From an uncultured Bacilli bacterium (GTDB lineage: Bacteria > Bacillota_I > Bacilli_A > RF39 > UBA660), in the NCBI GenBank assembly GCA_934096315.1, contig CAKOLT010000001.1, positions 43,412-107,411 on the forward strand: 64,000 nt of DNA, read 5' to 3'. Below, in pieces: positions 2,548 through 63,639 of the stretch (position 1 is its first letter; the number at the start of each line of letters is the position of its first letter). A model generated the notes under the pieces. That model was not told the origin of the DNA. It saw only the letters and a program-made list of their open reading frames with translations, and ran no database searches. Made by a program: the position numbers and the translations under genes.

Positions 2548-3309
2548 TTACTCTTTCTCTCTTGTAGTATTTTTATTAACATTAAACATTGAATTAAAAA
2601 TATTAATATCTGCATTACCATACATATCAACCAGTTTTTCCACAAGTTTTTTTACTTCAAGACGTTTACCACTTTTCTTTTTAGTAACACTACAAGCACA
2701 ATCCAAAAATTCAATTTCTGCATGTTTAGCAAAAGAAATAATATCCTTTTCTTTTACATAGAAAAGTGGTCTAATTAGTTGCATGTTCTCAAAATTATCA
2801 CTATCTAAAATAGGAAGCATACCAGAAAAAGTTCCATTATAAATTTGGTTAAGAAGAATCGTCTCTATTACATCATTAAAATGATGACCTAAAGCAATTT
2901 TATTACAACCAAGTTTTTTACCCATATTATATAAAGCTCCCCTTCTCATTCTTGCACATAAATAACAAGGATTGCTGTTACCTTTAACAATTTCAAAGAT
3001 ATTAGAACTAAAAATGTTTATTGGTATATTTAAATGTTCTGCAATCATCTTAATATTCTCTAATTTATCTGGAGCATATCCAGGATCCATCACAATAAAT
3101 TTAACATCAAAATTAAACTTATTATGTCTCTTTAATTCCTGCATACACTTTGCTAAAAGAAAACTATCTTTACCACCACTAATACAAACCCCAATAACAT
3201 CATTTTCTTTAATAAGATCAAAATCTTTAACAGCTCTTATAAATTTTGAATAAATCTCCTTCCTATATTTTTTAATTATTGATCTTTCAATCTCTACTAA
3301 ATTTTTCAT
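2548..3309 (-). CDS. ttcA: tRNA 2-thiocytidine biosynthesis protein TtcA (PP-loop ATPase)
   Basis: PP-loop SGGKDS motif, ~250 aa, conserved Cys residues typical of the TtcA family. Confidence 0.7.
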   Translation of the reverse strand: MKNLVEIERSIIKKYRKEIYSKFIRAVKDFDLIKENDVIGVCISGGKDSFLLAKCMQELKRHNKFNFDVKFIVMDPGYAPDKLENIKMIAEHLNIPINIFSSNIFEIVKGNSNPCYLCARMRRGALYNMGKKLGCNKIALGHHFNDVIETILLNQIYNGTFSGMLPILDSDNFENMQLIRPLFYVKEKDIISFAKHAEIEFLDCACSVTKKKSGKRLEVKKLVEKLVDMYGNADINIFNSMFNVNKNTTREKE

Positions 3310-8268: not shown

Positions 8269-9729
8269 TTATATTCTATATTTATTTTCTTGTTTATCAT
8301 TATAAGTATTATTTCTAATTTCCATCATCCTATTAAATAGATCCTCCGAACTACCCTTTAAAATATTATTTCTATTATTTGTAAAGTCTACAAATAAATC
8401 CTCTCTCTGAGAATCATTTACACTATTATATATTCTCAAATCTTCCTTATAATCTTTAAATGTAATTCTTTCAATTGGTTTTATTGCCTCATAATCATAA
8501 GTGTCAATTAACACCATAATATCTGCAAAAAGTTTAGCATACAAACTAGCCATATGTAAATCTTGATTTTGACCACTGGTGTAAAATCTATCTAGTAAAG
8601 ACAATCTCAAATCATTCTTCAGTCCACTTGAAGAAATTTTACTAATCTCCTTATCTAGTTCTGCAAAAATTAAATCTATCCTACTTATAACATTTTTACT
8701 ATTTTCTGGTTTAGCCTCCTCAAGAGGAAGATATACTTTAGATACTACCTCATTAATTAACTCTAATACCTTATCATTATCACTGTATTTATCCCGTAGA
8801 GACTGTATTTTTTCAGTAGCCTCATTTCTTTTATCTTGTATAATTTTATAATTATCTAAAATATACACAATTCTAGCTTTAAACTTATATATTTCTTCTT
8901 CAACTTCTTTTAAATCATGAGTTTTAATATATACACTATTACATCTTTCCTTTACATTATTTATCTCATTACTTAAATCTATTTTATCAAAAAACTCATT
9001 ATCCTTTAAAGAATCTAAAGTAATAGAAACCATGTCATTAATCTTATTATTGAATGCAGCCTCTGCTGTATTTTCCATTTTAATTAATTCATTTATCCTA
9101 TCACTAGCTAATTTACAAGCTTCACTTAAAGAAGTGATTTTATTTTTTTCAATATCCCCTGCTACATCAGAAACAAAAGTTTTAAAAGAATCTGTATACA
9201 AAAACTTATAATCATAACTTACTTCAAGACATGATGTATAAAGTTCGTTTATATACTGTATGCAGTTTTTTTTACAGTTTGTTAAAGCAATATCACAAAC
9301 ATTTTTACCATCTATAATACTACTACCATTAGCTTTTACGCTTCTAATTAAAAGTTTTAAATTAGCATTAATACGTTCAATATATTTTCTACCAATTCTC
9401 TCTAAATCACTTTTTGCAAAAACCTCTCCAAAATTAACATTAGTAATATAACTATTTCTTTCCATTAAATCACGAATATCCGCAATATCTTTTTCTATTG
9501 ACCCTCCATTAGTTTTAGACTGTTTTAAATCTTTAACTAAAGTATCATAAGCTTCATTTAGTTTCTTTGTCATAGACTCCATTACTTGAAGATCCAAACC
9601 AAGTTGATATACTAAATCAGGATGATACTGTTTTAATTTTTTACGGTAAATATGCTTTAAAAGATCTTCATCATAATTACCACTTAATCCTAACACTTCT
9701 TCCGCTTCTCTTCTCGTCATTTCCGCCAT
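8269..9729 (-). CDS. J-domain (DnaJ-like) protein with long coiled-coil region
   Basis: N-terminal LLKHIYRKKLKQYHPD contains the HPD motif of J-domains. The remaining ~400 aa are K/E/N-rich and predicted helical. Confidence 0.5.
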   Translation of the reverse strand: MAEMTRREAEEVLGLSGNYDEDLLKHIYRKKLKQYHPDLVYQLGLDLQVMESMTKKLNEAYDTLVKDLKQSKTNGGSIEKDIADIRDLMERNSYITNVNFGEVFAKSDLERIGRKYIERINANLKLLIRSVKANGSSIIDGKNVCDIALTNCKKNCIQYINELYTSCLEVSYDYKFLYTDSFKTFVSDVAGDIEKNKITSLSEACKLASDRINELIKMENTAEAAFNNKINDMVSITLDSLKDNEFFDKIDLSNEINNVKERCNSVYIKTHDLKEVEEEIYKFKARIVYILDNYKIIQDKRNEATEKIQSLRDKYSDNDKVLELINEVVSKVYLPLEEAKPENSKNVISRIDLIFAELDKEISKISSSGLKNDLRLSLLDRFYTSGQNQDLHMASLYAKLFADIMVLIDTYDYEAIKPIERITFKDYKEDLRIYNSVNDSQREDLFVDFTNNRNNILKGSSEDLFNRMMEIRNNTYNDKQENKYRI

Positions 9730-45297: not shown

Positions 45298-46799
45298 TTA
45301 TCCTTTAGAAACCGTGTATGGATTATCAATAGTGCCATCTCCTTCGGTTATTATTACATCTGGTTTTAGGGAGAAGACTGGCCAAACCGAACGCCAATAG
45401 TAGACGAGGTAGAAGTCGGGGACGACGATGCCTGTCGTGGAGACAACGAACGCAGTGTCAGTGTAGGACGAGAGAGGGAACAATAGCCACTGATAACTTG
45501 AATTGAATAGCCAATCACTATTCTTACAACTAGTATCATAATCTTTTAAATTAGTTCCATTAACACAAGTAGTCCCTGCTGCATATCCATAATCTGATGT
45601 ATACATTAAGGCTACTTTCCCTTCCCAATAATATGGTCTATTCTCATCATATCTTCCACTATTATTTCCTGTTTTTGTTCTTTCGTATGTATACAGGTGG
45701 TTGTTGTTATTGATGTTGAATTATGTCCTGCTAAATAATATCTAGAATCTCCAATCATCCTTTTAGCAGTACTACTTAATTTGTAATTAGTAAAGTCTAC
45801 ATCTCTTACACTTTGATTAATATAGTCAGGCATCTTCCCTGTATTAGTTGTATCACTCCACCAGATACCACTATTAAGCATAATCATAAGAGAGCTACCA
45901 CTAGTGGTACTATTACTATAGTTATTAGTTATATTATTTCTTGTCTCTGTTGGGGTTGCCCAGATATTTGTATATGTTCCATCTGACTTCATATCCCATG
46001 CAAAGGTATTTACTGTACCATCAGTAAGAACAGTTGCCTTTATTACCTTTAACCTATTGACTCCCTCTAACTCATCATATATACTACCAATAATTCTATA
46101 TAAATGCTTATCTGGACATGTCGTACTACCCTCAAAATCTAGACATACATAGTTATCAGGATTAGCCCCATAATACCTATAATCATCTACTGCAGGTATT
46201 TTCTCTCCAGTTACACTATCAGTTGCACTTATCTCATCATGATGTACCTTATACACTCCACTACCTGAGTCACCATTAGTTCCATCATCTAATGATTCTA
46301 TATATTCATTTGCAGGAATTACCTCTTCAGGTATCATCACCTTCCCACTAGCTAAAGTAAGTTCTCCCCCTTTAACATAACCTGCTAAAGCCCCTAGATT
46401 AACTTTAACTTCACTAGAAGAAGTATTACTAACTTCTATAGTTAAAGTTATATTACTTTCTTTATTAGCTATACCACTAGATTTATTCTTACTTCTCTTC
46501 TTATATACTATACTAAACTCTTCTGGTTTAGTAGTAGGACTAACCATCTCATAATAAATAACATAACTTATCTTCGCAGGATTAGGGTTATACATTACTA
46601 CATCATAATACCTAGTCTCGTTAGGTTCCACTACTAACTGTTTAATACTACTATTACCTATTTGAAATGTATAATCTAAATCCGTTGTACTTAGGGTATT
46701 CTCTACTACACTAGTATCATAAGCAAGTGTCCTATAAAGGGCAAATACCGTAAATGAAGTTAACACAATTAATAATACTATTACTACTCTTTTTATCAT
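45298..46799 (-). pseudogene. Secreted paralog-family protein A, split by a frameshift near 45690-45715 (402-aa and 102-aa ORFs are one gene)
   Basis: The 402-aa ORF ends out of frame (..TTTTCIHT). The other frame continues YTYERTKTGNNSGRYDENRPYYWEGKVALMYTSDYGYAAGTTC, matching paralogs B/C. Central ~200 aa nearly identical to paralog C. True start MIKRVV after GAAGGGAG. Confidence 0.6.
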
Positions 46800-46822
46800 T
46801 TTCTTACTCCCTTCAAGCATGT

Positions 46823-46872
46823 AAAAAGACTATGACAAACTAGAATACTCCTGTATTCTTACTGTCATAGTC
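46823..46872 (-). promoter_or_regulatory. Conserved terminator-like leader hairpin ~20 nt upstream of the paralog A RBS
   Basis: mRNA sense GACUAUGACAguaagaauacaggaguauucuaguuUGUCAUAGUC then UUUUU. Almost identical element at 54356-54408 ahead of paralog C. Confidence 0.5.
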
Positions 46873-46918
46873 TTTAATTCTTATACTATTTTTCTTATTT
46901 TTATTTAATTGGCTGTAA

Positions 46919-47010
46919 ACAGCCTTATGTGCCCATAAAAATTATGTGCCCATTATTAAATAAAAGCCTGAAAAATGGGCTTTTTTTTATTTTTTATGTT
47001 CGCATAATAG
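46919..47010 (+). repeat. Repeat module R1 (~92 bp): aacagccTTATGTGCCCAT x2 ... hairpin ... half-palindrome GTTCGCATAA. Inverted copy at 47461-47555
   Basis: Reverse complement of 47461-47555 aligns along its whole length except the central hairpin. Ends in half-site atGTTCGCATAAtag. Confidence 0.7.
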
Positions 47011-47139
47011 TTTGGTTAATTTTTGTATTTTTTCTCAAAAATACCTCTATCTCTAATATTTCTTTTTTGGTATTTTTATTTTCAAACTTTTATTTATTCT
47101 ATTTTTTTCTAATATTTCTTTTTTCTTTCCAAAAAAAAC

Positions 47140-47437
47140 CCTCATTTATATTTCTGTGGTTGTCAGGTTTTTATATTCAAATAATTCTTTTATTACAGTT
47201 AATGAAAAACCATCATCAATTAAATAAAATCCCTTATAATGCCTTATTATATGGCTAATACAAGAATTTCCTTATATGATTAAACCTCCATTTCTGTGTA
47301 TCATAACTGATACCTAATTTAAATAAATATTTGGCATATTGATTATACACACTATATATATGTTTACTGTAACTATAATTCTTAGTTACTAAATAATTTT
47401 GTGAAAACATAAATATCAATCCTCCTTTTATTTTCAC
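47140..47437 (-). pseudogene. Decayed tyrosine recombinase/integrase gene (N-terminal ~50 aa intact, then frameshifted, then truncated)
   Basis: After strong SD AAAGGAGGA: MFSQNYLVTKNYSYSKHIYSVYNQYAKYLFKLGISYDTQKWRFNHIRKFLY* fits the integrase SAM-like N-domain (S.NT..SY..D...Y..FL). Another frame continues ..RHYKGFYLIDDGFSLTVIKELFEYKNLTTTEI*. No catalytic domain remains. Confidence 0.4.
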
Positions 47438-47460
47438 AAAATAATAATATCACATAATTT

Positions 47461-47582
47461 ATTATGCGAACATAAAAAAAGAAAAAAGCCCAGAAAATGA
47501 GCTTATTTTTAATAATGGGCACATAATTTTTATGGGCACATAAGGTGCATTATGCGAACGTTCGCATAAACAGCCCCCCCCA
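47461..47582 (-). repeat. Repeat module R2 (inverted copy of R1) plus full palindromic core site S1 and C8 tract
   Basis: Begins with half-site TTATGCGAAC. At 47550-47569 the perfect 20-bp palindrome TTATGCGAACGTTCGCATAA flanked by ggtgcat / aacagcc. Followed by CCCCCCCC and aaacaaaTGTTCGtATTA. Confidence 0.7.
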
Positions 47583-47782
47583 AACAAATGTTCGTATTAA
47601 TGATTTTCCTTTAAAATATTTATTCATGAGGGGCTCCTTTCTTAATATATTTTGACTCCGTCAAAATATATTTCTTTCTTTACTATCCATATTTTACCAC
47701 ATATTTATATTCTCTTCAAGTACTTTTCTAATTTTTTTTTACAAGTATATATAATATTTTCGATTATATGAATTTTATCAAT

Positions 47783-54355: not shown

Positions 54356-54408
54356 ATAAAAAGACTATGACAAACTAAAATACCCTTGTATTCTTACTGT
54401 CATAGTCT
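54356..54408 (-). promoter_or_regulatory. Conserved terminator-like leader hairpin upstream of the paralog C RBS (second copy)
   Basis: GACUAUGACAguaagaauacaaggguauuuuaguuUGUCAUAGUC then UUUUU, ~25 nt before GAGAGGAAG SD. Confidence 0.5.
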
Positions 54409-54444
54409 TCCATTTCTATTCTCATTATCTTACCAAACTTGGTA

Positions 54445-54515
54445 ATTATATTAATGGGCACATAAGGCTGTTTATGCGAACGTTCGCATAATGCACCCCC
54501 CAACAAATGTTCGCA
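54445..54515. repeat. Repeat module R3 with palindromic core site S2, in opposite orientation to S1
   Basis: taATGGGCACATAAGG ggctgtt TTATGCGAACGTTCGCATAA(54472-54491) atgcacc CCCCCC aacaaaTGTTCGCATTAT. The 34-bp core with arms is the exact reverse complement of the S1 core. Outer flanks are direct. Confidence 0.7.
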
Positions 54516-54625
54516 TTATAGATTTTTTTGGAGATTCTATATCCATTTTACCCATTATTTCTCTATTTATATTATATAAATTTAACATATAAAATCACCA
54601 AAAATCCTTTCTTATTCTTTTACTA

Positions 54626-60892: not shown

Positions 60893-60925
60893 TAAAAAGA
60901 CTATACCACATACATGGTATAGATC
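60893..60925 (-). terminator. Conserved hairpin terminator after Rpn gene 1 (copies at 62027-62058, 62447-62480, 63590-63625)
   Basis: CTATACCAtgtatgTGGTATAG followed by T-run. The same module follows each gene of the array. Confidence 0.6.
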
Positions 60926-60934
60926 TTTATAAAA

Positions 60935-61864
60935 TTAGAATAAATTTGACTTGATAGCATTTATTTCTGATAGGCTTAGTTTAGTTACTTCTGATATATC
61001 TTTCTCTGGGTATCCTTTTTTGAGTAAGTTTTTTGTTATTTCTACTTTTTCAGTTTTCTTTCCACGTTTTTCACCACGTTTTTCACCACGTTTTTCACCA
61101 CGTTTTTCACCAATCTCAATACATTCAGAACGCGTAGTTGCTAGTTCCATCTCACGTTCTTCCTCTGCAGATATACAGGCTAAATACGCCTCATCATTAT
61201 TTTTGTCCTTCATTATTTTTAAAAGTCTATCAATATTCACTTTTTTTATTCCTCCCTTCTTTAACAATTTTCTTATTTCATTCAAATTAGTACAAGCAAA
61301 CATAGCTCCGATAAAAATCCTTTTATCAATACTATAACTGCCATCATCACTGATATAATTATATACCTTTTTCTTACATTTTGCAACATCTAAATTCAAT
61401 GTTGAAAAATTTTTAAGCAAATCTTCTTGTGTTAATGTGTTTTTCTTAACATAGAAGGCTATGGCATTCTTGATATTCGATCTACCATTTATATTAACTT
61501 GATATAAATGGTAGTTTTTCATATCAGTGTAATTAACACAGTGATTAGAGATATAGTAAAAAATAGCGTACAGATATTTTTCATTCCTATATCTCTTATA
61601 ATCTGTGTAGCCATCTTTATTGACTTCACAGTTTATATACACCGTGTCATTTACTTTTAGTATGATATCGCATATCGATTTATCATCGCCTAAGTTTTGC
61701 TTTATGAGTTCTGAATTTAAAACTTCGACTTTATCTTCATAATTAAAATCTAGTCCTAAAAGAGAACACAAAAGATTAGCTAAAATCTTAGGCTCCTCTA
61801 AAAAGATATGCTTAAAAGAATTATCATATAGTAAACTCTTAATTTCCACATCTTGCTCCGTCAT
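60935..61864 (-). CDS. Rpn-family (YhgA-like) recombination-promoting PD-(D/E)XK nuclease with C-terminal DUF4351 domain
   Basis: N-terminus MTEQDVEIKSLLYDNSFKHIFLEEPKILANLLCSLLGLD after AGAAGGAGGTGA SD. C-terminus EKRGEKRGEKRGEKRGKK..ITKNLLKKGYPEKDISEVTKLSLSEINAIKSNLF. Confidence 0.65.
   Translation of the reverse strand: MTEQDVEIKSLLYDNSFKHIFLEEPKILANLLCSLLGLDFNYEDKVEVLNSELIKQNLGDDKSICDIILKVNDTVYINCEVNKDGYTDYKRYRNEKYLYAIFYYISNHCVNYTDMKNYHLYQVNINGRSNIKNAIAFYVKKNTLTQEDLLKNFSTLNLDVAKCKKKVYNYISDDGSYSIDKRIFIGAMFACTNLNEIRKLLKKGGIKKVNIDRLLKIMKDKNNDEAYLACISAEEEREMELATTRSECIEIGEKRGEKRGEKRGEKRGKKTEKVEITKNLLKKGYPEKDISEVTKLSLSEINAIKSNLF
61063..61113 (-). repeat. In-frame 12-bp tandem repeat (x4, encodes EKRG) inside Rpn gene 1
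   Basis: ccacgtttttca repeated four times on the plus strand. Paralog 2 has a different repeat count and composition. Confidence 0.7.
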
Positions 61865-62030
61865 GTTACTCACCTCCTTCTGAGAATAACTACCCTCACT
61901 ATAATATCTCCAAAGTGAGGTCAAAAATTCCCCCCTGTGTCTGAATTATTACCATAGATTATGCAATTATTACCAAAAATAGTGTAAAGTAAGTGTAAAG
62001 TAAGGTATTTTTGACAAAAAAAGACTATAC
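61865..62030 (-). promoter_or_regulatory. Conserved ~165-bp promoter/leader shared by the Rpn paralogs (second copy 63429-63595)
   Basis: Sense strand TTGACC-15-TATAGT. The -10 region is embedded in the inverted repeat CCTCACT-N13-AGTGAGG. The two copies are >90% identical. Confidence 0.45.
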
Positions 62031-62058
62031 CACCTACTTGGTATAGTTCTTTATAAAA

Positions 62059-62355
62059 TTAGAATAAATTTAACTTAATAGCATTTATTTCTGATAGGCT
62101 TAGTTTAGTTACTTCTGATATATCTTTCTCTGGATATCCTCTCTTGAGTAAGTTTTTAGCAACCATAACTTTTACTTTTTTTCTGCCAAGAGCTTCTCCA
62201 ATAGCAATACCACGTTTCTCACCTTTGTACAAAGCCTCAGACTTTGTAAATGCTAGTTCCATCTCACGTTCTTCTTTAGCTAATCTAATACCAAAACATA
62301 GATCCTCATACTTTTTTTGTTTCTCAAGGGCTTTTAAGATTTTATCTGCATTCAT
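62059..62355 (-). CDS. Free-standing DUF4351-only small protein (Rpn C-terminal domain homolog, RpnS-like)
   Basis: MNADKILKALEK..EEREMELAFTKSEALYKGEKRGIAIGEALGRKKVKVMVAKNLLKRGYPEKDISEVTKLSLSEINAIKLNLF. Own SD GGGAGG. Lacks the nuclease domain. Confidence 0.55.
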   Translation of the reverse strand: MNADKILKALEKQKKYEDLCFGIRLAKEEREMELAFTKSEALYKGEKRGIAIGEALGRKKVKVMVAKNLLKRGYPEKDISEVTKLSLSEINAIKLNLF

Positions 62356-62486
62356 TTTTTTTCCTCCCATTTACTATTTATGATACAATTATATACCATT
62401 ATTCTGTGTTTTACAACAAAAATATTAAAAATGCTATAAATTACAAAAGTACTATACCACCAGATGAGTGGTATAGTACTTAATTA

Positions 62487-63428
62487 TTAAAATAAATTTA
62501 ACTTGATAGCATTTATTTCTGATAGGCTTAGTTTGGTTACTTTTGATATTGCTTTCTCTGGATATCCCTCTTTAAGTAAGTTTTTTGTTATTTCTACTTT
62601 TTCGCTTTTTTTCCCACGTTCTTCACCACGTTTCTCTCCAATAGCGATTCCACGTTCTTCGCCACGTTTCTCACCTTTGTACAAAGCCTCAGACTCTGTA
62701 AATGCTAGCTCTCTCTTATGTTCTTCTTCTGCTGATATAATACCTAAATATTCATCATTTTTATTCTTTTCTTTTATTATTTTTAAAATTTTATCAATGT
62801 TCACTTTCTTTATTCCTCCTTTCTTCAATAATTCTCTTATCTTTTCTAAATTAGTAAATCCAAACATAGCTCCTAAATAGACTCTTTTGTCAGGACACTC
62901 TATGATACTGTCATTGGTATAATTATATACCATTTCTTTACATTTTGCAACATTTACGTTTAAATTAACCAAATTTTTTAAAAGTGGTTCTTTTGTAGAT
63001 ATATTTTCTTTGATGTATATGGATATAGCATCACTAATTCCCGAAGTACCATTAATATTTACTTGATATAGCTTGTAATTAGCCATATCTTCATACTTCT
63101 TAGAATGGTTACAGAGATGATTATAAATACTGTTAAAGTACTTCTCATTTCTGTATCTTTTATAATCTGTGTAGCCCTCTTTGTTGACTTCACAGTTTAT
63201 AAAAGTTTTATCATTAATCTTGAGAACTATATCACATATTAGTTTGTCGTCCTTTAGGAATTCTTTAATTAACTCTGAGTTGTTTATTTCTACGGTGTAA
63301 TTATAATCAAAGTCTATCCCTAAAAGAATACATAAAATATTTGCTAATATTTTGGGTTCCTCCAAAAGAATATGCTTAAAAGAATTATCATATAGTAAAC
63401 TCTTAATCTCAACATCTTGCTCCGTCAT
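62487..63428 (-). CDS. Rpn-family (YhgA-like) PD-(D/E)XK nuclease with DUF4351 tail, paralog 2
   Basis: ~75% identical to paralog 1. Same SD/start context. C-terminus ..EKRGEERGIAIGEKRGEERGKK..ITKNLLKEGYPEKAISKVTKLSLSEINAIKLNLF. Confidence 0.65.
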   Translation of the reverse strand: MTEQDVEIKSLLYDNSFKHILLEEPKILANILCILLGIDFDYNYTVEINNSELIKEFLKDDKLICDIVLKINDKTFINCEVNKEGYTDYKRYRNEKYFNSIYNHLCNHSKKYEDMANYKLYQVNINGTSGISDAISIYIKENISTKEPLLKNLVNLNVNVAKCKEMVYNYTNDSIIECPDKRVYLGAMFGFTNLEKIRELLKKGGIKKVNIDKILKIIKEKNKNDEYLGIISAEEEHKRELAFTESEALYKGEKRGEERGIAIGEKRGEERGKKSEKVEITKNLLKEGYPEKAISKVTKLSLSEINAIKLNLF

Positions 63429-63639
63429 GCTACTCACCTCCTTCTGAGAATAACTACCCTCACTATAATATCTCCAAAGTGAGACCAAAAATTCCCCCCT
63501 GTGTCTGAATTATTACCATAGATTATGAAATTATTACCGAAAATGGTGTCAAGTAAGTGTAAAGTAAAGGGTTTTTGACAAAAAAAGACTATACCGCATA
63601 CTTGGTATAGTTCTTCATAAAATTGAGTTAATTTTCATA

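Follow-up and report, generated by a model that had tools for sequence, protein, structure and literature searches.

A probable internally deleted recombinase-in-trio-type element in the poly-G leader of a surface-protein gene from an uncultured gut Bacilli bacterium

In a 64,000-nucleotide stretch of DNA from an uncultured Bacilli bacterium (GenBank assembly GCA_934096315.1, contig CAKOLT010000001.1, positions 43,412 to 107,411; the whole stretch is called the window below), a decayed tyrosine-recombinase gene lies between two long inverted repeats, R1 and R2, upstream of a surface-protein gene that we name paralog A. Our analysis indicates that this structure, referred to as site 1, is probably a ~650-bp internally deleted element of the recombinase-in-trio (RIT) type, which entered the poly-G leader of paralog A and disabled that leader. 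In the scenario we favour, the element would have kept both terminal repeats, with their putative recombinase-binding subrepeats, as well as the palindrome at its end, and would have lost nearly all of ritA-ritB-ritC, the ribosome-binding site and start of ritA becoming joined to the final ~95 codons of a RitC-like gene. A deletion of ~2.7 kb may have made this ritA-ritC fusion, and a frameshift and the change of the catalytic Tyr to a stop codon would have followed. Within the leader, the insertion would part the leader open reading frame (ORF) from its terminator and add one inward terminator per repeat; paralog A would be off from then on and would later have acquired a frameshift.

The two repeat arms cover 88 nt (46923-47010 against 47459-47545) with ~82% identity out to their inner ends, and their outermost 45 nt (46923-46967 against 47501-47545) are 96% complementary, the mismatches being concentrated in the loop of a small hairpin; terminal inverted repeats, as expected for a RIT element, are present. 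R1 (46923-47010, plus strand) opens with CC and carries TTATGTGCCCAT subrepeats at 46925-46936 and 46942-46953, a terminator-like hairpin at 46962-46984 with an additional T run, and the half-site GTTCGCATAA at 46998-47007. R2 (47462-47545, plus strand) carries the half-site TTATGCGAAC at 47462-47471, a minus-strand terminator-like hairpin at 47486-47504, and ATGGGCACATAA subrepeats at 47515-47526 and 47532-47543, followed by GG. Each arm therefore contains two TTATGTGCCCAT copies and a terminator-like intrinsic hairpin, and both hairpins point into the element. The inner half-sites are the two halves of the palindrome TTATGCGAACGTTCGCATAA, which stands in full just beyond R2 as a perfect 20-bp palindrome (47550-47569; 32 bp with imperfect flanks), a palindromic end of the sort described for RIT elements; with its flanks TGCA and ACAG it occupies 47546-47573, at one element end only. 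The half-site is enriched, with nine matches at one mismatch or fewer against 1.6 expected, and the full palindrome has a second copy at 54472-54491, upstream of another family member, paralog C. No known RNA family was found in or around the element, the sole match being a sub-threshold Histone3 stem-loop. An initial annotation of this DNA had described R1 and R2 as reverse complements enclosing ~450 bp, with half-palindromes at their ends and paralog A directly downstream, all of which our measurements bear out, the gene (45612-46799/46820, minus strand) lying ~100 bp downstream of the element. It had also considered that the two repeats might be copies of a common repeat occurring singly elsewhere; this is true of pieces of the unit (at 54445-54501, and as a subrepeat-like motif in all leaders) and not of the whole, the complete repeat unit being seen in the site-1 element only.

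What lies between the repeats is the remnant of a recombinase. A 51-aa ORF runs on the minus strand from 47410 to 47258 (47255-47410 with its stop at 47255-47257), preceded by the Shine-Dalgarno (SD) sequence AAAGGAGG at 47421-47428 on the same strand, and its residues 14-50 align just upstream of box II in the catalytic domain. The frame-shifted continuation ISHIIRHYKGFYLIDDGFSLTVIKELFEYKNLTTTEI (47271 to 47149, minus strand) extends from box II through the position of the catalytic Tyr; here the H-x-x-R-H of box II is retained, LGH has degenerated to FEY, and a stop codon (47146-47148) occupies the Tyr position. Downstream of it, the C-terminal tail MRVFFGKKKEILEKNRINKSLKIKIP (47053-47148, minus strand) aligns with the C-terminal extension of RitC. 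For the frame-shifted piece alone, PF00589 was the only match (profile positions 129-164 of 172, E 0.0014), and the E-values of the remnant against this family are 0.0013-0.0014. The stitched peptide matches the XerA and XerC models at their C-terminal ends (positions 205-273 of 295 for XerC), covers residues 207-293 of a 301-aa XerC, and in the PDB finds XerA (4a8e, residues 223-275 of 292, E 3e-4), the Brujita integrase and XerD, with E-values from 3e-4 to 9e-3. In a tblastn search of plasmids it gave at least 5000 matches listed, among which all those with an annotated feature are tyrosine recombinases and query residues 14-103 are covered.

The 450 bp thus hold ~95 codons of one catalytic domain, and the surviving remnant is, as these alignments place it, the last third of that domain, its N-terminal two thirds having apparently been lost. 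The short ORF with its strong SD, the frameshifted continuation and the decayed tyrosine recombinase had all been recognized in the initial annotation, and the PF00589, Xer, PDB and plasmid matches agree with it. Its assignment of the ORF to the N-terminal SAM-like domain of integrases does not hold, as no integrase N-terminal model of Pfam or NCBIfam was matched by the 51-aa peptide and the SAM-like domain is thereby ruled out; nor does its statement that a catalytic domain is absent, in view of the ~95 catalytic-domain residues aligned with PF00589, XerC and XerA of the PDB. The profile search that it had proposed for the two peptides accordingly found catalytic-domain similarity and no N-domain similarity, and because the peptide aligns at the C-terminal end, whether stitched or unstitched, the domain is the catalytic C-terminus. 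A motif scan of the window found no intact tyrosine recombinase. In the 3' tail of the remnant, a perfect 17-nt direct repeat, TCTAATATTTCTTTTTT, occurs at 47052-47068 and 47108-47124, 56 bp apart, which suggests a small duplication during decay.

The descriptions of RIT elements are reportedly those of Van Houdt (2009 and 2012) and Ricker (2013). These elements consist of three overlapping tyrosine recombinase genes, ritA-ritB-ritC (PMC3414803, PMC10214605, PMC5737581), and imperfect palindromes of 47 and 51 bp have been published for their ends (PMC5737581). The recombinases are Xer-related simple tyrosine recombinases, among which RitC has an additional C-terminal helix (PMC8138268). When JGI metagenomes were scanned for GG-N4-palindrome-N4-CC, a single contig was returned (L042, 3.4 kb, 69% G+C), with three overlapping tyrosine recombinase genes and the TTATGCGAACGTTCGCATAA palindrome at both ends. 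Scanning GTDB for the bare palindrome gave 15 loci, among which L016 (Paracoccaceae) alone is a trio; the trio begins right after the palindrome, which stands at its ritA end. Both are intact trios, and they come from unrelated bacteria.

The ends of the two trios and of the window element can be read in parallel. From its palindrome inwards, L042 reads CTGACC, TTGTGCGAACC, TGGTGA, TTGTGCGAACC, 53 bp, GGTTCGCATAA, 48 bp and ATG, and L016 reads CTGTCT, TTATGCGAACC, TTATTG, TTATGTGAACC, 44 bp, GGTTCACATAA and about 58 bp to the first start. The window element, read from 47575 downwards, has TGCACC, TTATGTGCCCAT, AAAAA, TTATGTGCCCAT, about 44 bp, GTTCGCATAA, 51 bp and ATG after its palindrome. 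The common layout is a palindrome, 6 bp, an 11-bp direct repeat, 5-6 bp, the direct repeat again, ~44-55 bp, an inverted copy, ~50 bp and the first gene, as compared side by side over 47575 to 47408 of the window, 1-182 of L042 and 4786-4960 of L016, by a criterion which is our own and has no published definition. The remnant itself shows 33% identity over 98 aa, post-Tyr tail included, to RitC of the Cupriavidus necator plasmid pHG1, and the best-scoring among the plasmid matches listed lie in third trio genes, in pHG1 and also in a Rhodococcus trio; the pHG1 and Rhodococcus trios have a perfect 32-36-bp palindrome at one end only. As for the RitC subgroup, pHG1 RitC is the best match and plain Xer-type proteins are slightly worse, the fragment being too short for phylogeny. 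We infer a ritA-ritC fusion because the SD and ATG stand at the ritA position, 51 nt from the half-site, while the homologous codons are those of the ritC end. Three genes are not present at site 1, hence it is classed as a deletion derivative and not as a RIT element.

The sequence that the element interrupts belongs to a leader which can be followed on both of its sides. On the minus strand, a promoter-like TTGAAG-17-TAAAAT with a TG (47691-47719) is followed by a conserved 5' hairpin of the leader transcript (47645-47671), an SD (47634-47643) and the leader ORF, which spans 47550-47627, encodes MNKYFKGKSLIRTFVWGGLFMRTFA up to its stop and includes the poly-G tract (47574-47581, G8 in the window). 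Beyond the element, between the leader and the ribosome-binding site of paralog A, a terminator or attenuator hairpin (46823-46875, minus strand; -24.6 kcal/mol, z -6.1) ends in U5. Three uninterrupted leaders were available for comparison: L003, from the same species and downstream of ruvA, joined to a C-like paralog (G11); L026, from a Hadza gut sample, before a paralog of 71% identity (G12); and L040, before a paralog of 61% identity (G11). The regions compared were 46823-46875 and 47550-47719, together with 54358-54560 of the window, L003 2230-2480, L026 5730-6000 and L040 9720-10000. All three leaders follow one plan: the promoter TTGAA(G/A)-17-TA(T/A)AAT, the 5' hairpin, the SD and the poly-G leader ORF, and then TGCAG(A)-TTATGCACC(C/T)AT-TAAWATAATTACCAAKTTTGGTAA, a hairpin of -24.6 kcal/mol with U5, an SD and the paralog.

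In these three leaders the ORF enters the 3' arm of the terminator at G9, G12 or G15 only, that is, in one frame out of three; the tract of L026 is in the terminator-reaching frame, and those of L003 and L040 are one G short. The leader of paralog C, which includes the second palindrome, requires G5 or G8 and has G6. Tract length also varies among assemblies that do not otherwise differ, being G8 for the window and L002 but G9 for L001 and L021, with G11 in L003, and this variation is consistent with slipped-strand instability. By its sequence, the host leader is thus predicted to be one in which repeat length in a leader ORF sets access to the terminator, as in pil1 of Streptococcus gallolyticus, where a repeat in the leader-peptide gene was shown experimentally to control ribosome-dependent disruption of the terminator (PMC3894217). 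The host has 28% G+C and the standard genetic code, and occurs in gut metagenomes, including Hadza human-gut samples.

The boundaries of the insertion are marked by a 9-bp direct repeat, GGCTGTTTA, on the minus strand: one copy lies at the paralog-A-side junction (46924 to 46916, attR-like) and the other at the promoter-side junction (47575 to 47567, attL-like). When one copy and 642 bp (651 bp in all) are removed, the leader becomes colinear with L003, L026 and L040, and the frame of the reconstructed leader, which was derived by hand from the aligned sequence, would again run from the tract to the terminator. The reconstructed excised leader reads GGGGGGGGCTGTTTACAGCCAATT, and the uninterrupted leader expected for paralog A is poly-G-CTGTTTACAGCCAATTAAAT. 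L003, L026 and L040 have neither the palindrome nor the doubled subrepeats, and they lack the hairpin and the inner half-site as well. Joining the element ends in the same way gives the junction ATGGGCACATAAGGCTGTTTATGCGAACGTTCGCATAATGCACCTTATGTGCCCAT, which is pseudo-symmetric: subrepeats, GGCTGT, palindrome, TGCACC, subrepeats. On one side GGCTGTTTA abuts the inverted repeat, and on the other it is separated from it by 23 bp holding the rest of the palindrome. A DDE-type insertion sequence (IS) or miniature inverted-repeat transposable element, with inverted repeats and a target duplication, was rejected, since the direct repeat abuts one side only and the relic is a tyrosine recombinase.

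The second palindrome of the window belongs to site 2 (54445-54501, minus strand), upstream of paralog C, which is composed of poly-G(6), TGCA, the palindrome (54472-54491), ACAGCC and one subrepeat, and is 26 bp longer than the uninterrupted leaders. Site 2 has a 32-bp centre that exactly reverse-complements that of site 1, although its flanks are direct; with the 4-nt flanks, the palindrome reads CTGT-pal-TGCA at site 1 and TGCA-pal-ACAG at site 2. Site 2 is identical in three assemblies, which speaks against flipping of the small palindrome there. The site-2 palindrome also creates the best promoter-like match of its intergenic region (TAAACA-18-TATAAT, 10/12, 54474 to 54445). In the uninterrupted leaders a GGTGCA hexamer follows the tract, and the native leader TAATACGAAC ... 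TGCAGA-TTATGCACCCAT resembles the element end TTATGCGAAC-GTTCGCATAA-TGCACC-TTATGTGCCCAT. As regards mobility, then, there is one full relic together with one extra 26-bp piece, and uninterrupted paralogous leaders exist.

From this geometry, the site-1 insertion would be the product of site-specific recombination, with a 6-bp core (GGCTGT) next to the palindrome as the crossover, and site 2 may be the scar left by a second, oppositely oriented insertion through a GGTGCA core, with a later deletion between subrepeats. It is a tentative extension, and one that we hold to be rather doubtful, that the two insertions record how RIT elements integrate. On this view a joined-ends intermediate would carry two opposed 6-bp cores at its pseudo-symmetric junction, each recombining with the matching hexamer beside the poly-G tract in a leader subject to phase variation; a hairpin 'flip-flop' at the palindromic end would be another way to obtain the two orientations. 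The mini-element would, on the same view, continue to be inverted or mobilised in trans and act as a recombinational lock over the slipped-strand switch.

The consequences for paralog A can be read from the same alignments. Once the element is in place, the leader ORF falls short of the attenuator at every tract length between G5 and G11, and transcription from the leader promoter would meet the inward terminator of whichever arm faces the promoter; paralog A is probably locked off at any tract length. The gene itself (45298-46820, minus strand) is split into a 402-aa and a 102-aa ORF by a 1-nt deletion near 45690, where it reads ACCACC-TGTATAC and the homologue ACCACCATGTATAC. The separate 102-aa ORF is also found in L029, L031, L036 and L037, contigs recovered via a look-up of radC, and exact-protein look-ups of paralog A brought no contigs beyond those already recovered. 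Lock-off followed by decay of paralog A seems the most economical reading of these observations. In addition, contig L021 has an identical unit of leader, element and paralog A behind a paralogous promoter of ~85% identity, downstream of ABC-transporter genes and not of ruvA, with 100% identity from the SD onwards (2880-3000 against 47640-47730 of the window). Because this unit sits behind a different promoter copy, leaders recombine with each other across loci.

An invertible switch, or inverton, is the first alternative to be weighed: the ~450-bp segment would flip under a recombinase encoded elsewhere, and its orientation would set the expression of paralog A. The inverted repeats do occupy a 5' leader, with a surface-protein gene immediately downstream, and a promoter-like TTCGCA-18-TATTAT (47470 to 47441) in the element points to paralog A in the window orientation. 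Moreover, one contig carries the opposite junction. The first 661 nt of L029 (sample ERZ27287381) are 100% identical to the plus strand of the window at 46885-47545, and from position 624 it is 100% identical to the minus strand from 46960 downwards, so that R2, with its own hairpin variant, is joined to the flank of paralog A; the switch point falls within the 38-nt overlap of the two alignments, in the identical outer part of the repeat. Its left end is the parental junction, which implies both junction types in one sample at otherwise 100% identity, and the diagnostic bases are 39 nt apart, inside a 141-mer, so reads should support the L029 junction. For a RIT relic too, the contig suggests that the element still inverts, any present-day inversion presumably being driven in trans or by homologous recombination.

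As an account of the locus, a switch of this kind is nevertheless unlikely. An orientation-dependent ON/OFF is not what the arms provide, as the inward terminator in each would block transcription from the leader promoter in either orientation. What is more, the four assemblies examined that read across this junction on the promoter side (the window, L001, L021 and L028) share a single orientation there, opposite to L029, paralog A is a frameshifted pseudogene, and the poly-G/attenuator switch of the three uninterrupted lineages needs no inversion. Inversion is also compatible with a RIT relic and does not offer another origin for the element. Where the initial annotation had called for both orientations to be looked for, the opposite junction was thus found in L029, and one orientation only in the other four. 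Its general proposal, an invertible, IS-like or integrative element with an inactivated recombinase, survives as an inverted-repeat element with a dead recombinase, because of the recombinase homology, the uninterrupted leaders and the opposite junction of L029; the IS-like part of it falls away.

The second alternative is an Xer/dif-type module, in which inverted dif-like sites would be moved by host XerC/XerD or a single Xer. It can point to CATAA-N6-TTATG, which occurs four times in the window against 0.2 expected, two of the four being these sites; to GTTCGCATAA-TGCACC-TTATGTGCCCA, which resembles the dif layout of an 11-bp arm, a 6-bp centre and an 11-bp arm; to the scores of the remnant against XerA, XerC and XerD models; and to pdif modules, which are bounded by inverted Xer sites (PMC5790767, PMC13141974). 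Xer-like scores, however, are also expected for RIT, whose recombinases are Xer-related (PMC8138268), and the element brought a recombinase gene, or several, of its own. Its ends, with several subrepeats and an end palindrome, match those of the trios and not the 28-bp pdif sites, and the window does not lie at a replication terminus, GC skew being negative throughout; we therefore regard such a module as improbable, even by comparison with an inverton. A chromosomal dif site, a 28-bp target of the host Xer that usually lies at the replication terminus, is disfavoured as well, since no switch of GC skew is seen along the window.

The palindrome has a wider distribution than the trios. In GTDB it stands directly downstream of sigma-70-like promoters at L006, L007, L008, L011 and L014, in Massilia, Cohnella and Chloroflexota, and one such copy precedes a LacI-type helix-turn-helix N-terminus; at those loci it looks like a regulator operator, unrelated to recombination. 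At L009 (4190-4260; an uncultured Clostridium metagenome-assembled genome, 25% G+C), near the contig end, it centres a 48-bp perfect palindrome, ttggaagttgaaga-pal-tcttcaacttccaa. A LacI-type operator was rejected as the leading explanation for the window, where the palindrome is missing from the uninterrupted leaders, and it is present at trio ends. The weakest alternative, a native inverted duplication of the leader with the palindrome as an operator and an unrelated recombinase fragment trapped between the copies, draws on the promoter-like contexts just described and on the subrepeat-like TTATG(C/T)(A/G)CCCAT and TAAT(A/G)CGAAC motif native to every uninterrupted leader, but is already disfavoured and very improbable indeed, as the palindrome, doubled subrepeats, hairpin and inner half-site are missing from those leaders, the same ordered architecture flanks intact trios, and the enclosed fragment belongs to the gene that a trio would have at that end.

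Several observations weigh against a RIT-type origin and should be read together. In 13 unrelated genomes the TTATGCGAACGTTCGCATAA palindrome stands in a locus where, over the stretch examined, no tyrosine recombinase gene is detectable, and since it is also present at such recombinase-free loci, the palindrome alone is not diagnostic. The window subrepeats TTATGTGCCCAT are unlike the half-site, whereas those of L042 and L016 are nearly the same motif as the half-site. Among the plasmid matches listed, the margin of RitC over plain Xer proteins is modest (E 4e-5 against ~1e-3), and the third genes of L042 and L016 gave no score against the remnant in a small BLAST comparison. The RIT assignment draws on a remnant of ~95 residues at ~30% identity together with the architecture. 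The evidence for inversion is one fold-back MEGAHIT contig, L029. The uninterrupted leader L003 is at the same chromosomal position but on a different paralog, and neither a true empty leader of paralog A nor a second full copy of the element was found.

The same holds for the search for an intact relative, with a full-length recombinase between the same repeats, which the initial annotation had proposed: none was found in this organism or its relatives. For the host lineage, neither the protein searches nor the blastn comparison of the element with plasmids turned up an intact trio bounded by these exact repeats, and the whole element has no blastn match among plasmids. A word-indexed protein search for intact relatives with the stitched peptide gave nothing, and neither did a search with the antisense 109-aa ORF; an exhaustive phmmer search with the 41-aa piece against 1.8 billion representatives returned one repetitive match, which is probably spurious. 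Three scans of viral contigs gave 0 matches. The leader hairpin, scanned for in JGI, likewise gave 0 matches, from which it follows that the species is absent from the JGI set.

Regarding the genomic surroundings, the minus-strand genes follow one another in the order of transcription as ftsA, ftsZ, site 2, paralog C, paralog B, ddl, ruvA, site 1, paralog A and radC, with yhcG on the plus strand between paralog B and ddl. The paralog family comprises >1,600 homologues, which are unannotated surface proteins of gut bacteria, one of them on a 1.38-Mb contig. In L040, a 1-kb gap between two divergent paralogs of this family contains a perfect 17-nt inverted repeat, TATAGTTAGGCTAGCCT, around 181 bp encoding a small hydrophobic peptide (9420-9634). 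Elsewhere in the window (60894-63635), two to three paralogous genes have a weak, below-cut-off match to a PD-(D/E)XK transposase (PF12784); within these genes, variable tandem repeats of 12 nt specify GEKR units, and a conserved hairpin (AAAAAGACTATACC...GGTATAG) lies downstream of each gene.

The value of the locus lies in the natural comparisons that one species cluster offers, namely a relic, a 26-bp scar, three uninterrupted paralogous targets and a possible inversion, which confine the likely crossover to a core of 6-9 bp bordering the end palindrome and suggest a preferred target resembling the element's own end. Widespread as RIT elements are, laboratory work has yet to reproduce their transposition or to test their target specificity formally (PMC10214605), and the locus constrains how they insert. 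It also presents a mobile-element relic disabling a phase-variable attenuator in a large unannotated surface-protein family of the gut. For annotation, the lesson is that a short ORF with a strong SD between long inverted repeats can represent the fused ends of a larger, deleted element.

Among known systems, the closest to site 1 is the RIT element. The two share terminal inverted repeats, a palindromic end, and the order and spacing of the subrepeats; the 20-bp palindrome core is identical in the L042 and L016 trios; the remnant is most similar to RitC and lies at the RitC end, ~50 bp from the inner repeat; and the palindrome is one-ended, as in the RIT elements of pHG1 and Rhodococcus. They differ in that the window element has no trio, ~2.7 kb being missing, and that its gene fragment is frameshifted and without the catalytic Tyr. 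The host is a gut bacterium of 28% G+C, whereas the compared trios come from genomes of 50-69% G+C; in addition, the subrepeats of the window have diverged from the palindrome half-site, and the flanks of its palindrome are asymmetric (GGCTGT ... TGCACC).

With the invertible 5'-UTR or promoter switches operated by tyrosine recombinases, such as the flagellar switch of C. difficile with RecV (PMC5386303, PMC7446863) and the fimS-type switch of E. coli (PMC6083910), site 1 has in common the inverted repeats around a segment of a few hundred bp that separates a promoter from a surface-structure gene, and L029 is the one piece of evidence here that both orientations may occur. Its repeats, however, are far longer and composite, and its segment contains a recombinase pseudogene and symmetric inward terminators, so that no ON orientation is expected. 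The pdif modules of Acinetobacter plasmids (PMC5790767, PMC13141974) are likewise short and bounded by inverted dif-like sites of arm, 6-bp centre and arm, but they use host XerC/XerD and 28-bp sites only, while the window element combines composite ends and an end palindrome with a recombinase of its own that is now dead. Finally, it is the surrounding leader, and not the element, that resembles pil1: both have a short ORF with a simple-sequence repeat and a strong terminator before a surface-protein gene, and in both only some repeat lengths bring the ribosome to the terminator. The repeat is a poly-G tract here and is made of GCAGA units in pil1, the leader described here is known from sequence alone, and the inserted element has broken the mechanism of the window copy.

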